Shown here piece by piece: positions 2,841 to 50,330 of a stretch of DNA of 64,000 nt. The stretch covers positions 30,551 to 94,550 of the forward strand of contig CAZNGF010000002.1 of the NCBI GenBank assembly GCA_964572855.1, in the 5' to 3' direction. A program made the position numbers and the translations under genes. Each line of letters begins with the position of its first letter. Position 1 is the first letter of the stretch. This DNA comes from an uncultured Thermotogae bacterium (lineage in GTDB: Bacteria; Bipolaricaulota; Bipolaricaulia; RBG-16-55-9; JAJCYT01). The notes under the pieces are model-generated. The model was not told the origin of the DNA and ran no database searches. It worked only from the letters and a program-made list of their open reading frames with translations.

Positions 2841-3797
2841 GTGGTTGAAACCGTGTTCCGAAAAACCGTGATCCCGATCGCCTACCTGCCGACCTCGGCC
2901 GCGACCTTGCGCTGGGGGGCACGGCTCACGCGTCGCCTCGGCAGCGACCTTACCGTGCTCTACACCGCGCAGGCCGCCCAGCAGGGCCCGCTGCACGCCA
3001 GCCTGGCGGCCGAGAAGATGTCCGAATGGGGGGTCGAACCGCCCAGCTTCGGTATCCTGCGCGAGGCCGAGGACGTGCTCAAGGCCGAGGGCGCGCTCAT
3101 GCTGGACGCCCGGGGACGGGTGGTGGAACGGCACGCCTTCAAGGCCGTCGACCGCGGCCTCTACGAGGTGCACGCGCGCGGCCCGCAAGGCGAAAACGTG
3201 CGCTTCCGGCTGCGGGAGGGTGCGGTCGTGAGCCAGATCCTGCAGGAAGTTGAGGACCCGTCCTACGACCTCATCTGCGTGGGCACCCGCGGCCGGCGCG
3301 GCTTCCGGCGCCACCTGCTGGGGAGCATCGCGCAGGACGTGGCCATGCACGCGCCGTGCTCGGTGCTGGTCGCCAAACACCTGGACCAAATCGAGCGGGT
3401 GCTCGTCGGCGTGACCGGCCGTGAGAGCTCGCGCGAGGCGTTGCGCCAGGCCGCCCAGCTGAGCCGCGCGCTCGAGCTCCCGCTCGAGCTCATCGCCATC
3501 TTCCCGAGCCCGGAACAGCGCGACGCCGCGGAGCAGAACCTCGCGGCGGGCATAGCGCTGGCCCGCGAGCTGGGCGTCGCTGCCACGCCGCGTCTCGAGC
3601 GCGGCGACCCCGCCCGGGTGCTGATCCACACCGCACTCGAGGGCACGCTGCTCGCGCTGGGGCGCACGCCGCTCTCGATGGTGCAAAAGTTCTTCCTCGG
3701 CGACACCTCGATCAAAGTTCTGGATCAAGGCCGGTGCTCGGTTCTCATTGCCGTCCCCCCCCGCCAGCCCGTGGAGGAAGACCGAACCGACGATTGA
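2841..3797 (+). CDS. Universal stress protein, tandem UspA domains.
   Basis: Two Usp-like halves are present. Each ends in the characteristic G(T/S)RGRRG…LGS(I/V)A…V…HAPC(S/P)VL(V/I) ATP-binding motif: LICVGTRGRRGFRRHLLGSIAQDVAMHAPCSVLVAKH, and a second, more degenerate C-terminal half LLALGRTPLSMVQKFFLGDTSIKVLDQGRCSVLIAV. The GTG start at 2841 is chosen because it lies just after the transporter stop at 2837-2839; the track ORF (from 2763) overlaps that gene. Confidence 0.65.
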   Translation: MVETVFRKTVIPIAYLPTSAATLRWGARLTRRLGSDLTVLYTAQAAQQGPLHASLAAEKMSEWGVEPPSFGILREAEDVLKAEGALMLDARGRVVERHAFKAVDRGLYEVHARGPQGENVRFRLREGAVVSQILQEVEDPSYDLICVGTRGRRGFRRHLLGSIAQDVAMHAPCSVLVAKHLDQIERVLVGVTGRESSREALRQAAQLSRALELPLELIAIFPSPEQRDAAEQNLAAGIALARELGVAATPRLERGDPARVLIHTALEGTLLALGRTPLSMVQKFFLGDTSIKVLDQGRCSVLIAVPPRQPVEEDRTDD

Positions 3798-7121: not shown

Positions 7122-7180
7122 CTACAAGGGCAAACCAAGCGAAAGCCTGGGGCGCAAAGCTACGGCCTTCTAGGTCCGCA
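7122..7180 (+). promoter_or_regulatory. Possible degenerate or partial upstream c-di-GMP-I (GEMM)-like aptamer, i.e. the 5' half of a tandem arrangement.
   Basis: The sequence aagGGCAAACCaagcGAAAGcctggGGCGCAAAGCtacgg closely matches the GEMM 5' half: GGCAAACC, then a P2 hairpin with a GAAA tetraloop, then GACGCAAAGCC. No convincing 3' half (ACAGCCGGG…ACCG) follows before the next aptamer begins. Confidence 0.3.
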
Positions 7181-7252
7181 CGAACAAGGCAAACCCGCCG
7201 CGAGGCGGCGACGCAAAGCCACGGGTCTCTTGCAGACAGCCGGGCTACCGTA
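7178..7252 (+). promoter_or_regulatory. c-di-GMP-I (GEMM) riboswitch-like aptamer in the 5' leader of the downstream secreted pilin-like gene.
   Basis: The sequence acaaGGCAAACCcgccGCGAggcgGCGACGCAAAGCCacgggtctcttgcagACAGCCGGGCTACCG carries the hallmark GEMM-I blocks. These are GGCAAACC, a P2 hairpin with a GNRA tetraloop, GACGCAAAGCC, and a P3 with a conserved 3' ACAGCCGGG(Y)UACCG. A near-identical arrangement is found at 9150-9222. Downstream, CCTAATG…CATTAGGAGG could form a hairpin that sequesters the RBS. Confidence 0.55.
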
Positions 7253-7307
7253 GCGTACCTAATGGTGGCAGAGCCGCTAGATGCGACATCATTAGGAGGT
7301 GCTTTTT

Positions 7308-9102: not shown

Positions 9103-9149
9103 CATTACCGCGGTCAAATGCCGCCGTGAAGAAGCCACAGCTTCACATC

Positions 9150-9222
9150 GCGAAAAAGGTAAACCCGCCGCGAGACGGGGACACAAAGCCACGGGTCTCT
9201 AGAAGACAGCCGGGCCGCCGAA
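9150..9222 (+). promoter_or_regulatory. c-di-GMP-I (GEMM) riboswitch-like aptamer, second copy.
   Basis: The sequence aaaaaGGTAAACCcgccGCGAgacgggGACACAAAGCCacgggtctctagaagACAGCCGGGCCGCCG has the same block order as the 7178-7252 copy. Differences sit at loop or compensatory positions (loop cttgc vs ctagaag). The aptamer ends 11 nt before ATG 9233 and directly abuts the RBS (GAAGGGGTGAAGC-ATG), which is consistent with translational control. Confidence 0.55.
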
Positions 9223-9232
9223 GGGGTGAAGC

Positions 9233-42115: not shown

Positions 42116-42274
42116 CGTCCCTCCCGTGCGCTGCCTTGACGCTACCCGCGCGGGCCGGCGGCGCGCAACGACGCGCGTCCGCCCCGCGCGGGCCACCCGC
42201 CCGTACGCGTTGCATTCGCCCAGCCAAACGTCCCTTGACAAGCCCTCCGGGCGAGGCTACAATGGGGGCATCTC

Positions 42275-42301
42275 TTAGCAGTCACACACTTTAAGTGCTA
42301 A
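42275..42301 (+). promoter_or_regulatory. CIRCE-like inverted repeat (HrcA operator) upstream of groES.
   Basis: TTAGCAGTC-N9-AAGTGCTAA, against the consensus TTAGCACTC-N9-GAGTGCTAA (one mismatch per arm). A TACAAT -10-like hexamer lies at 42257-42262, just upstream. Confidence 0.6.
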
Positions 42302-42653: not shown

Positions 42654-44285
<1,632 letters not shown>

Positions 44286-44312
44286 AGTCTGAGCAGAACG
44301 CAAGTTGAAACA

Positions 44313-44354
44313 GCGGCGCCTCGCCCTTTGCGGCGGGGCGCCGCCTTTCCTTCC
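44313..44354 (+). terminator. groEL intrinsic terminator hairpin.
   Basis: GCGGCGCCTCGCCC-tttgc-GGCGGGGCGCCGCC followed by TTTCCTTCC. Confidence 0.5.
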
Positions 44355-44415
44355 TCCCCGGTTTGCAAACCCGCCGCGCCCCACGTACCATGCCCGCAAC
44401 ACGACTCAAGGGGTG

Positions 44416-44499
44416 ATGGCCATGTCCAATCCGAAGCGCACCGATCCCGCCGTCCGGAGCGTCATCGCCCACCACCACGTCGGCCGCTGGGTTCATTGA
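44416..44499 (+). CDS. hisL: Candidate his operon leader peptide (27 codons) with three consecutive His codons.
   Basis: RBS AAGGGGTG. The ORF is MAMSNPKRTDPAVRSVIAHHHVGRWVH-stop and ends 65 nt before hisG. A candidate promoter, TTTGCA-N18-TACCAT, lies within or next to a perfect 12-bp palindrome GGTTTGCAAACC at 44360-44371. Confidence 0.4.
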   Translation: MAMSNPKRTDPAVRSVIAHHHVGRWVH

Positions 44500-44564
44500 G
44501 CCGTACGGTCCGTCCACGAAACCCACCACGCATGGCTCGAAGCTGAAGCAGTCAGGAGGCGCCC

Positions 44565-45425
44565 GTGTCTGACCCGTTGAAGATCGCGGTGCCCAGCAAG
44601 GGCCGCCTAAGCGAACGCGCGCTCGAGCTTTTGTCCAAGGCGGGCTTCCACGTCCCGCGGCACGCACGCCGGCTCATGTCGGACGTCAACGGCGGCTGGC
44701 GCCTGCTGTTCGTGCGCACCCAGGACATCCCCGAGTACGTGGCCACCGGCACGGTCGACGCCGGGATCACCGGCAGCGACCTGGTGGCCGAGCACGGCGT
44801 GGGCGTCCAAGAGCTGCTCCCGCTTGGCTTCGGCCGCTGCCGCTTGGTGGTGGCGGCGCCCCGCTTGGGGGCAATCGAGTCGCTCGAGGACCTGGACGGA
44901 AAACGCGTGGCCACGACCTTCCCGCGCGCCTCGGGCCGCTTCTTCGCGTCGCGCGGCCTGCGGGTCGAGATCGTCCCGCTCTCGGGCGCCACCGAGGTCG
45001 CGCCCAACGTCGGCGTGGCCGAGGCCATCGCCGACCTGGTCGAGACCGGCTCGACCTTGCGCCAGAACGGGTTGGCCGAACTCGAAACCGTGTTCCGCTC
45101 CGAAGCCGTCTTGATCGCCAACCCCGCCAGCTACGAGGCAAACGGCAACGCGCTCGACGAATTTCGCGCTGCGCTCAAGAGCGTGCTGGACGCCCAGGCG
45201 AAGCGTTACCTGATGGCCAACGTCCCCGAGGCGCAACTCGAGCGCGTCAAGGGGCTGCTGCCCGGCGTGACCGCGCCCACCGTCATGCACCTGCTCGACG
45301 GCGACGGCTGGGTCGCGCTACACGCCGTTGTCCACGAGGACGAGATCAACGCGCTCATCCCGCAACTCAAGGAGCTCGGCGTCCAGGGCCTGCTCATCCT
45401 GCCGATCGAAAGGATGGTCCCATGA
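44565..45425 (+). CDS. hisG: ATP phosphoribosyltransferase, long form with C-terminal regulatory domain.
   Basis: 286 aa, GTG start. HisG motifs (…DAGITGSDLV…) and a C-terminal ACT-like HisG_C domain. Confidence 0.85.
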   Translation: MSDPLKIAVPSKGRLSERALELLSKAGFHVPRHARRLMSDVNGGWRLLFVRTQDIPEYVATGTVDAGITGSDLVAEHGVGVQELLPLGFGRCRLVVAAPRLGAIESLEDLDGKRVATTFPRASGRFFASRGLRVEIVPLSGATEVAPNVGVAEAIADLVETGSTLRQNGLAELETVFRSEAVLIANPASYEANGNALDEFRAALKSVLDAQAKRYLMANVPEAQLERVKGLLPGVTAPTVMHLLDGDGWVALHAVVHEDEINALIPQLKELGVQGLLILPIERMVP

Positions 45426-49030: not shown

Positions 49031-49578
49031 CCGACACGGGTTGGACCGAGCTCAAACGCCACACGCGCGAGACGGAGGTCGCCCTGCGGCTCAAACTGGG
49101 TGGGAGCGGTCAGACCGACCTCCAACTCGCCCCCTACTTCCTGCGCCACATGCTCGAGACGTTCGCCCTCTACGCGGGCTGCGATCTGGAACTGAAAGCC
49201 ACCGGCGAGGACGAGCACCACCTGATCGAGGACGTCGGGATCACGCTCGGCCGGGCCGTGCGCCAAGCGTTGCCCGACATGAAGATCGAACGCTTCGCGC
49301 ACGCGATCGTCCCCATGGACGACGCGCTCGTCCTGGCCGCGCTCGACCTGGTGGACCGCCCCTACGCATCCGTCGACCTACCCGACCCGCTGTACGCCCA
49401 CATGCTGCGCTCGATGACGCTCGAAGGGAAGTTCACGCTCCACCTCCGGCCGCTGGCCGGGGAGGACGTCCATCACGTGGTCGAGGCCGGCTTCAAGGCG
49501 CTCGGGCGCGCACTGCGCGCGGCGGTCCAGCCCGTAGGGGGCGTGTCGAGCGCCAAGGGCGAGGTGAGCTGGGCATGA
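49027..49578 (+). CDS. hisB: Imidazoleglycerol-phosphate dehydratase (monofunctional).
   Basis: IGPD motifs (…HHLIEDVGI…, …DDALV…, …[15 protein letters not shown]…). GTG 49027. No histidinol-phosphatase domain. Confidence 0.85.
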
Positions 49579-50330
49579 CGCTGGCCAAGCGGATCGTCCC
49601 CTGCCTCGACGTCGACGGCGGGCGCGTGGTCAAGGGCGTGCGCTTCAAGGCACTGCGCGACGTGGGCGAGCCGGCCGAGCTGGCCGCCTTCTACGAGCGC
49701 CAAGGGGCCGACGAACTCGTCTTCTTGGACATCACCGCCTCGGTCGAGGGCCGCCAGACGTTTCTGGACGCCGTGCGCCGCACGGCCGAGACGCTGTTCG
49801 TCCCGCTCACCGTGGGCGGGGGCGTCGCATCGGTCCAGAGCATGTACGAGACGCTGCGTGCGGGTGCCGACAAGGTCTCGTTCAACACGGCCGCCGTGCG
49901 CGACCCCGAGCTCATCACCCGCTGCGCCGAACGCTTCGGCAGCCAGTGCGTCGTGGTGGCCATCGACGCCAAACGGGAGAGCGAAGGCTGGACGGTCTAC
50001 ACGCACGGCGGGCGGGCTGAAACGGGCCTGGACGCGCTCCACTGGGCACAGCGGGTCGTCGGGCTCGGCGCCGGCGAGATCCTGCTCACGAGCATGGATG
50101 CCGACGGCACCAAGGACGGCTACGACCTGGCGCTCACGCGCGCCGTCGTGGACGCGGTGTCCGTACCGGTCATCGCCTCGGGCGGCTGCGGCTCGAGCGA
50201 GCACATCGCGCGCGTCCTGGACGAGGGCGGCGCGCAAGCCGCGCTGGCGGCCTCGATCTTCCACGACGGCGAGTGCACCGTGGGCCAGGTCAAGGACGTG
50301 CTCAGGGCGCGCGGGGTGCCGGTGCGATGA
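49575..50330 (+). CDS. hisF: Imidazole glycerol phosphate synthase, cyclase subunit.
   Basis: [25 protein letters not shown]… is canonical HisF. Confidence 0.9.

Follow-up and report, generated by a model that had tools for sequence, protein, structure and literature searches.

The window analysed here, a 64,000-nucleotide (nt) stretch of contig CAZNGF010000002.1 (positions 30,551 to 94,550, assembly GCA_964572855.1), belongs to an uncultured member of the Bipolaricaulota (Acetothermia) and has a guanine-plus-cytosine (GC) content of ~67%. It carries a histidine biosynthesis operon in the order hisG-D-C-H-A-B/F, which ends at about position 50330 and is preceded by a short control region that is the subject of this work. 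The first gene, hisG (44565..45425, + strand), encodes a long-form ATP phosphoribosyltransferase of 286 amino acids (NCBIfam TIGR00070 and TIGR03455) and starts with a GTG codon at 44565, located 5 nt downstream of the Shine-Dalgarno (SD) sequence AGGAGG (44554..44559, + strand). Genes matching hisD, hisC, hisH, hisA and hisF were also found downstream of hisG by NCBIfam models. Between hisG and the upstream edge of the control region sits a small histidine-rich open reading frame (ORF), whose conservation pattern points to a control of hisG that would depend on the translation of this leader rather than on the folding of its RNA.

The leader ORF (44416..44499, + strand) encodes (MA)MSNPKRTDPAVRSVIAHHHVGRWVH in frame 0, with 27 codons counted from ATG 44416 and a TGA stop codon at 44497-99; translated from ATG 44416 it reads MAMSNPKRTDPAVRSVIAHHHVGRWVH. 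It overlaps an extended SD, GGGGTGAT (44410..44417, + strand), which is the sole + strand copy of this string in the window, and a spacer of 65 nt separates the leader stop from the hisG GTG. An earlier sequence-only reading had reported a 27-codon ORF with a good SD that ends 65 nt before hisG, all of which we could confirm in the sequence. The same reading took three consecutive His codons in so short a peptide as improbable by chance; however, CAYCAYCAY occurs six times in the window compared to 2.7 expected, and this argument does not hold for the run (CAC CAC CAC at codons -9 to -7, 44470..44478, + strand) taken by itself.

Relatives were collected by a protein search, which yielded a clade of ~37 hisG proteins sharing 62-91% identity with hisG of the window. 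The DNA around 12 of these hisG genes, together with the metagenome contig L031, gave 13 relatives for comparison; a scan of a genome collection returned no clade member (best hisG match ~51% identity), and a scan of metagenomes returned L031 only. The leader, its SD and a His-rich tail are found upstream of hisG in 12 of the 13 relatives, over the whole range of hisG identities (62-91%) and at GC contents of 48-70%. Comparison with related genomes had been set beforehand as a check on the leader, and it speaks for conservation. Because the SD and the His-rich tail are conserved in front of hisG, the leader ORF as a whole is, by this comparative evidence, beyond chance. Hereafter, the 13 sequences in leader and spacer counts denote the window plus the 12 leader-bearing relatives, which represent ~10 independent lineages; the closest of them is L065, with a hisG 91% identical to that of the window. 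The remaining relative, L071 (hisG 69% identical; 2980-3001), is without a leader, and its hisG follows an rpoD-like sigma factor gene at a distance of 20 nt.

In most relatives the SD takes the form GG(G/A)GTGAT and lies 4-7 nt before the ATG. The relatives align as GGGGTGAT-N4-ATG, and their single ATG matches the second ATG of the window at 44422. As the SD-to-ATG spacing of the relatives thus aligns with this second ATG, the leader more likely starts at 44422 and comprises 25 codons (MSNPK...). The N-terminal halves of the leaders and the spacers cannot be aligned between lineages; what is conserved is the tail, with the motif [A/S]-H-H-[H/P]-x-x-[H/R/P]-x-[V/L]-H-stop, as in ...SAHHHPHHWVH (L067), ...SAHHHPVHHLH (L075) and ...AHRHAGRWVH (L065). 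The His run is HH or HHH in most relatives and HRH in L065. The window has three consecutive His codons plus a terminal one, and the relatives have at most six within the last nine codons, such that neither reaches the run of 5-7 His codons of classical his leaders. Altogether, the comparison indicates a real, conserved, His-codon-rich leader that heads the his operon and is under clear purifying selection. Histidine sensing through translation of this leader would be its obvious role.

The leader shares several properties with the enterobacterial leader hisL (RF00514): it is a short, efficiently initiated, His-rich ORF directly before hisG that most likely gauges how much charged tRNA-His is available, and a proline often follows the His run, as in the HHHP of Bipolaricaulota relatives. 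The E. coli hisL peptide contains the run HHHHHHHPD. Compared to these seven, the present leaders have only two or three consecutive His codons (up to six of the last nine). They also differ from hisL in having no terminator, antiterminator or conserved pairing, and in possessing a conserved tail that ends in NUU-CAU-stop codons and is joined to hisG by a start-less +1 frame.

Classical hisL-type transcription attenuation, in which a ribosome on the His codons selects between a terminator and an antiterminator, would fit the position of a His-codon leader directly upstream of hisG, and had been the proposal of the sequence-only reading. Its His-rich leader ORF stands, whereas the terminator/antiterminator device does not, as no such structures were found. 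A terminator scan detected nothing between the leader and hisG, the sole hit nearby being the groEL terminator described below. The leader-to-hisG RNA of the window folds less stably than its shuffles (minimum free energy z = +2.2), the fold z-scores of the window and 10 relatives range from -0.95 to +2.18, and none of these 11 sequences, low-GC relatives included, shows a hairpin followed by a U run. Structure prediction for the alternative hairpins suggested at 44470-44565 gave no mutually exclusive stem-loops, and RNAalifold on 12 aligned leader sequences found 0 conserved pairs. Moreover, Rfam searches detected no His_leader (RF00514) match at E<=10 in 44200-44700, and neither a his leader nor a T-box at gathering score in the window and 18 related loci.

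As a positive control, we used hisG relatives at ~50% identity from metagenome-assembled genomes labelled Gemmatimonadota or Planctomycetota and from metagenome contigs. Their leaders read MNNMIHVRHHHHH(H)AHTGGGKVVHA and are followed by CCGCGGCCCGTCGAGAACGGGTCGCGGTTTTCTTTT, forming a textbook his attenuator with a 13-bp terminator and a U run; RNAalifold recovered a structure of -60.7 kcal/mol that includes this terminator. HisL-type attenuation is thus in use among more distant hisG relatives, but the lack of a terminator-like site, the weak folding, the absence of conserved pairs, of an Rfam match and of U tracts after hairpins in low-GC relatives refute it for the present leader as far as sequence analysis reaches, and we leave it scarcely any probability. 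On these comparisons, the leader is not a classical attenuator, and a conserved, terminator-less his leader family is present in Bipolaricaulota. The control attenuators are located at L002:2800-3000 (from a Gemmatimonadota-labelled genome), L032, L034-L037 and, in part, L038; they themselves match no Rfam family at gathering score. Other candidate structures in the leader region were rejected as well. A T-box leader, the other kind of tRNA-His sensor known, had no covariance-model match in the region, in the window or in the 18 loci, and a T-box-like UGGG in the leader is not conserved; a GAGCC...GGCTC hairpin starting at the leader stop is present in the window and lost in L065.

When the leaders are anchored on their stop codons, the string (G/C)TT CAT TGA GCC emerges as nearly invariant, synonymous positions included. 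In 13 of the 13 sequences, either GTT or CTT occupies the penultimate position and is followed by CAT for His. In L077 (GC 54%) the leader ends ...HSLHLL-TAA, with CTT CAT placed two codons before the stop; L076 and L077 both keep CTT-CAT with the stop shifted by 2-3 codons and changed in type. These codons are rare in their genomic context: in hisG plus hisD of the window, GTT makes up 5% of Val, CTT 3% of Leu and CAT 20% of His codons, and codons ending in T account for 3% of all. Across hisG plus hisD of the same loci, the values are 0-27% for GTT, 1-17% for CTT and 0-61% for CAT. The 70% GC relative L076 uses CAT for 0% of its His codons in hisG plus hisD, yet for 7 of 7 leader His codons, and its longer leader contains three CTT-CAT and one GTT-CAT. 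If synonymous sites were free, the joint chance of NTT-CAT would be ~1e-14 (product per lineage, from the codon table). Because rare synonymous codons are invariant, selection acts on the RNA string NUU-CAU and not on the peptide alone.

This pattern bears directly on a TnaC-type mechanism, in which the nascent tail ...HHHxxxW[V/L]H-UGA would, from within the exit tunnel, sense either free histidine or ribosome state and control release at the UGA, which in turn would govern access of Rho or initiation at hisG. The tail is indeed conserved at the amino-acid level (an aromatic residue or Cys at -3, V/L at -2 and H at -1); among the 11 sequences with a stop directly adjoining CAT, 9 use UGA, and a GCC is conserved after it. 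A peptide sensor, however, has no need for conserved synonymous positions such as NTT and CAT, nor for the CTT-CAT that L077 and L076 retain upstream of displaced stops. It also leaves the open +1 frame described below unaccounted for, and its logic is inverted for a biosynthetic operon, in that arrest in the presence of histidine would protect the RNA and raise expression. We therefore regard TnaC-like arrest as a minor rival and an improbable one.

The second unusual feature lies in the spacer. In the +1 frame of the window, an ORF with the codons AUU GAG CCG ... CGU GUC UGA (44495..44572, + strand), delineated by comparison, encodes IEPYGPSTKPTTHGSKLKQSGGARV. This frame is open from 44417 onward, contains no ATG, GTG or TTG, and closes at a TGA (44570-72) that overlaps codons 2-3 of hisG (GTGTCTGA). 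Across the family, no stop interrupts the +1 frame between the His-rich tail and the hisG start, over the whole spacer (50-111 nt), in 13 of the 13 sequences; on the 5' side of the leader stop it continues without interruption for 13 codons or more, spanning the entire His-rich tail. The idea was formed on 11 sequences with spacers of 65-105 nt; L077, from the most divergent lineage not yet sampled, was added fresh and L076 was re-read afterwards. In L077 the +1 frame is open to ATGTCTGA, and in L076 it is open for ~60 codons to an ATGA overlap. Within the spacers of the 11 sequences, stop codons number 6, 0 and 16 in frames 0, +1 and +2, respectively. Under dinucleotide shuffling, the probability (P) of an open +1 frame is 0.23-0.90 per sequence and 9e-4 over eight lineages, and in the classical his leaders of the outgroup the +1 frame contains one or two stops in 6 of 6 cases.

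Over the stretch examined, ATG, GTG and TTG are absent from the +1 frame of the window, L065 and L031, and the start codons of this frame in L066, L067 and L073 are confined to the last few codons before hisG (two codons before it in L066 and L067). Since it lacks a start codon of its own, this frame could in those sequences be entered only from frame 0. In each of the 13 sequences the frame closes 1-13 nt past the first base of the hisG start, with ATGA in L066, L031, L068 and L070, GTGTCTGA in the window and ATGAGTAA in L075, and the spacer length is never 1 mod 3, the value that would fuse the +1 frame to hisG. A 1-nt difference in spacer length between the window and L065 goes along with a change of stop: the window reads TCT GAC, with the rare codon TCT, and L065 reads TCG GAC and terminates at the TGA within TTGAAG. 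Beyond the initial I-E-P, the +1 peptides are not conserved.

Other routes past the leader stop were considered and rejected. In every sequence the -1 (+2) frame meets a stop after 5-16 codons, and read-through of the stop in frame 0 closes at variable places, before hisG in several relatives. Reinitiation at an AUU overlapping the UGA (AUUGA) was discarded on account of L076 and L077, which keep CUU-CAU without such an overlap, and of its inverted logic.

Three largely independent features, namely that the frame is open, where it ends, and that synonymous sites are invariant, suggest the same direction: a +1 shift on the last His codon of the leader. We propose that the shift would take place on the heptanucleotide G_UUC_AUU (frame 0 GUU CAU U; 44491..44497, + strand), which is placed there by the NTT-CAT invariance. 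If His-tRNA is plentiful, the ribosome would read ...GUU CAU, terminate at UGA 44497 and come off the mRNA 65 nt upstream of hisG. If His-tRNA is scarce, the ribosome would wait with CAU empty in the A site, and the peptidyl-tRNA might slip +1 from GUU (CUU in most relatives) onto UUC; Ile-tRNA would then read AUU (AUC in L076 and L077), and the spacer would be translated in the +1 frame until the ribosome terminates at the UGA overlapping the hisG start. A ribosome delivered to this point could act by termination-reinitiation, by melting any pairing of the ribosome-binding site (RBS), and by leaving no naked RNA for Rho, the outcome being that his expression rises under histidine shortage. 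Also in favor of this reading, there is no terminator, conserved structure or Rfam family that could serve as output device.

That a histidine-starvation +1 frameshift at (C/G)UU_CAU_U carries ribosomes to the hisG start has, in our estimate, about an even chance of being correct. Slightly short of even we place the fuller claim that a selected “hungry-codon” +1 frameshift switches on the his operon, with histidine supply being read as a change of frame and not as a hairpin. The compared sequences directly support the conservation of the leader, the absence of an attenuator structure, the invariance of NUU-CAU and the start-less open +1 frame. From these we infer that the shift occurs, that it depends on histidine and that it raises hisG expression, and likewise that some cause keeps hisG low when no shift takes place.

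Without any frameshift, ribosomes pausing at the His codons near the end of the leader might alter the fate of the downstream RNA, either by freeing the hisG RBS from pairing with a C-rich spacer (erm/cat-type) or by disturbing the loading of Rho. Rho-dependent attenuation is exemplified by the tna, mgtA and corA leaders. Such stalling would give a role to the conserved HH(H) run, which is superfluous to the frameshift model, and the spacers pooled over the 13 sequences are C-rich, G-poor (cytosine-to-guanine ratio, C/G, 1.41) and unstructured, like rut sites. Pairings between anti-SD segments and the hisG SD were also seen by eye, between CTCCCGCGA and TCGCGAGGAG in L031, between CGCACCCT and AGGGTGCG in L066, and as a hairpin over GGGAGG in L073. 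However, ensemble pairing of the hisG RBS amounts to 45-80%, in none of the 13 sequences does it exceed the level obtained with shuffled spacers, and there are no conserved pairs; sequestration of the SD, a candidate based on the by-eye pairings in L031, L066, L070 and L073, was rejected by this shuffle test of RBS accessibility. The spacer of the window has a C/G of 1.26, at the 57th percentile of the strand, and a ribosome stalled 20-30 nt before the leader stop does not cover a spacer of 65-105 nt. Moreover, stalling leaves the NUU-CAU invariance, the start-less open +1 frame and its end at the hisG start unaccounted for. We consider control by stalling alone a serious rival, itself rather unlikely.

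Several observations weigh against the frameshift proposal. The frame analysis is post hoc for 11 of the 13 sequences, and the sequences amount to ~10 independent lineages. An open frame is cheap at high GC (P 0.67 for the window and 0.90 for L065), and stops just inside hisG are common, with ATGA at 50% and the ATGTCTGA type at 37% of 16 outgroup starts; with these outgroup frequencies, the P for a stop near the hisG start is ~2e-4 over 10 lineages. A naive estimate of 2e-12 was discarded as too optimistic in view of the same frequencies. Nor do the spacers avoid His codons in the +1 frame, which has 8 compared to 11 and 9 in the other frames. At the shift site itself, CUU slipping to UUC keeps three P-site pairs counting wobble, whereas GUU slipping to UUC restores only two of three.

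The proposal further leaves the HH(H) run without a role, and a starved ribosome would stall there first; in general, neither the upstream HH(H)P run nor the conserved UGA-GCC is accounted for by a frameshift. Finally, hisG has a strong SD of its own, within a block (GAAGCAGTCAGGAGGCGCCCGTG) that is unchanged in L065, its occlusion is no greater than with shuffled spacers, and the C/G of the window spacer is unremarkable, so that the off state is left unexplained by the frameshift model. A further caution comes from the E. coli pheL leader, in which a +1 shift reaches 15% and is nevertheless judged incidental (PMC3082878).

Among known systems, the frameshift proposed here most closely resembles in its consequences the ketolide-induced frameshift in the ermC leader, which sends ribosomes into the spacer and activates ermC (Gupta et al. 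2013, summarised in PMC5009743). In ermC, and by our proposal here as well, a change of frame within a leader ORF takes the ribosome past the leader stop, so that the spacer is translated and the downstream gene turned on. Trigger and output differ: ermC responds to a drug that acts in a largely sequence-independent manner, and a defined hairpin concealing the ermC start is thereby unfolded, whereas here an unoccupied His codon within a fixed slippery sequence would trigger a +1 shift, no defined hairpin is present, and the frame reached by the shift closes on the hisG start.

In its build, the site resembles +1 sites with a slow A-site codon, such as Ty1 CUU_AGG_C (40% shift), EST3 CUU_AGU_U, ABP140 (with a stop after the site) and RF2 (PMC5009743). 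The heptanucleotide (C/G)UU_CAU_U has the same organization as those of Ty1, EST3, ABP140 and prfB. Its NUU_C, present in 13 of the 13 sequences, allows the P-site tRNA to re-pair at +1, as in Ty1, EST3 and RF2, and similar to Ty1 and prfB, a frame-0 stop follows 0-3 codons after the last CAU and the +1 frame is open and mostly start-less. In prfB, the slow A-site codon is the very stop being sensed. By contrast, the slow step proposed here would be conditional on histidine and not on a rare tRNA or the level of a release factor, the SD-like stimulator 3 nt upstream in prfB has no counterpart here, codons -4/-3 being variable (CGC TGG, CAC TGT, CAC CAT, CAT TTG) and free of any conserved purine-rich motif, and the trans-frame product would be a non-conserved spacer peptide instead of a functional protein.

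Another parallel is found in E. coli pheL, where a +1 shift at UUC_CCC_UGA depends on the nascent peptide and leaves pheA unaffected (PMC3082878). Common to the two are the final sense codon of an amino-acid biosynthetic leader as the site of a +1 shift, proposed in our case, and nucleotide conservation where the ORF ends. The pheL shift, however, occurs at the stop and is judged incidental, a classical attenuator doing the regulation, whereas no attenuator is present here and the frame reached by the shift stays open as far as hisG. Single-base shifts upon aminoacyl-tRNA limitation are known as hungry-codon frameshifting from Gallant and colleagues (cited in PMC5009743), and as proposed here they occur where the P-site tRNA can realign; they are known as an error or laboratory phenomenon, whereas the present case would be a selected regulatory use. 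A 2016 recoding review knew of no utilised hungry-codon frameshift (PMC5009743), and our full-text literature search found no description of a his leader of this frameshifting type.

Leader-peptide control of amino-acid operons is textbook knowledge, and to our knowledge every known case turns the position of a ribosome into a choice of RNA folding. The conserved Bipolaricaulota leader has no folding choice to offer, and conservation is highest in the nucleotides that make up a Ty1/RF2-like slippery site before a His codon. If the proposal is true, this would be, as far as the literature search reached, the first natural, utilised starvation-induced frameshift and a new class of amino-acid attenuator, in which the hungry-codon error known from starved E. 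coli has been recruited as a sensor. Such a structure-free attenuator would be invisible to RNA-motif searches, and would have to be sought by a different rule: an amino-acid-rich upstream ORF, NUU_XXX_N, and an open +1 frame that lacks starts of its own and closes on the start codon that follows. Insight would also be gained into gene control in a candidate phylum without cultured members. Should the frameshift not be confirmed, a new terminator-less his leader family that needs a mechanism would still stand.

Upstream of the leader, a relaxed search detected the promoter-like pair TTGCAA-N17-TACCAT (44363..44391, + strand; -35 at 44363-68 and -10 at 44386-91), from which his transcription is expected to start near 44398; a scan with the strict promoter consensus gave no match in this region. 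A TTGNNN-N17-TANNNT pair is found at the equivalent place before the leader in 10 of the 10 relatives examined. The sequence-only reading had given the pair as TTTGCA-N18-TACCAT; a conserved promoter-like pair is indeed located there, but it is better read with the register above. In L073 and L074 (2700-2870), the pair TTGACG-N17-TATGAT lies 75-104 nt before the leader ATG, compared to 23-35 nt in most others, so that a long 5' untranslated region results, of which only part is conserved between the two.

The -35 element is overlapped by a perfect 12-bp palindrome, GGTTTGCAAACC (44360..44371), whose presence had been correctly noted before and which surrounds the self-complementary hexamer TTGCAA. 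It had been suggested as a repressor site, and a repressor bound there, or a constitutive his operon, would make the small ORF irrelevant to control; L075 also carries a 10-bp version, GTTTGCAAAC. Perfect 12-bp palindromes are, however, ordinary in the window (38 compared to 29 expected from composition). The site in L065 is CGTTTGCAATCC, with the symmetry broken, and the symmetry is absent in most other relatives, whose -35 hexamers are TTGACA, TTGACG, TTGCAC or TTGATA. Because of this ordinary frequency and the loss of symmetry in relatives, we judge the palindrome to be the -35 hexamer plus three chance pairs and not an operator. With the leader being under purifying selection in addition, an irrelevant small ORF is very improbable.

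The upstream edge of the his control region is formed by the groEL intrinsic terminator (44313..44354, + strand), a 13-bp GC-rich hairpin followed by CTTTCCTT that was placed at 44313-44344 by the terminator scan and is kept in L065; groES and groEL lie 5' of it. In front of groES-groEL, a promoter TTGACA-N17-TACAAT (42235-42263, + strand) is followed on its 3' side by a CIRCE-like inverted repeat, TTAGCAGTC-N9-AAGTGCTAA (42275-42301), in the usual layout of an HrcA operator. At the distal end of the his operon, the hisF match of the ORF at 49041-50330 (+ strand) is confined to residues 180-429 of 429, and its counterpart in L075, of 433 residues, has both His_biosynth and IGPD domains, which suggests a hisB-hisF fusion gene in the lineage of the window.

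Elsewhere in the window, two matches to the c-di-GMP-I-GGC riboswitch variant (RF03167; cyclic di-GMP) score above the gathering threshold on the same strand with ~2 kb between them, at 7179-7253 (+ strand, 70.0 bits) and 9149-9223 (+ strand, 76.2 bits). In addition, a transfer-messenger RNA gene (RF00023, 163.7 bits) is located at 973-1330 on the - strand, with the predicted tag peptide GNELAFAAPSLN.

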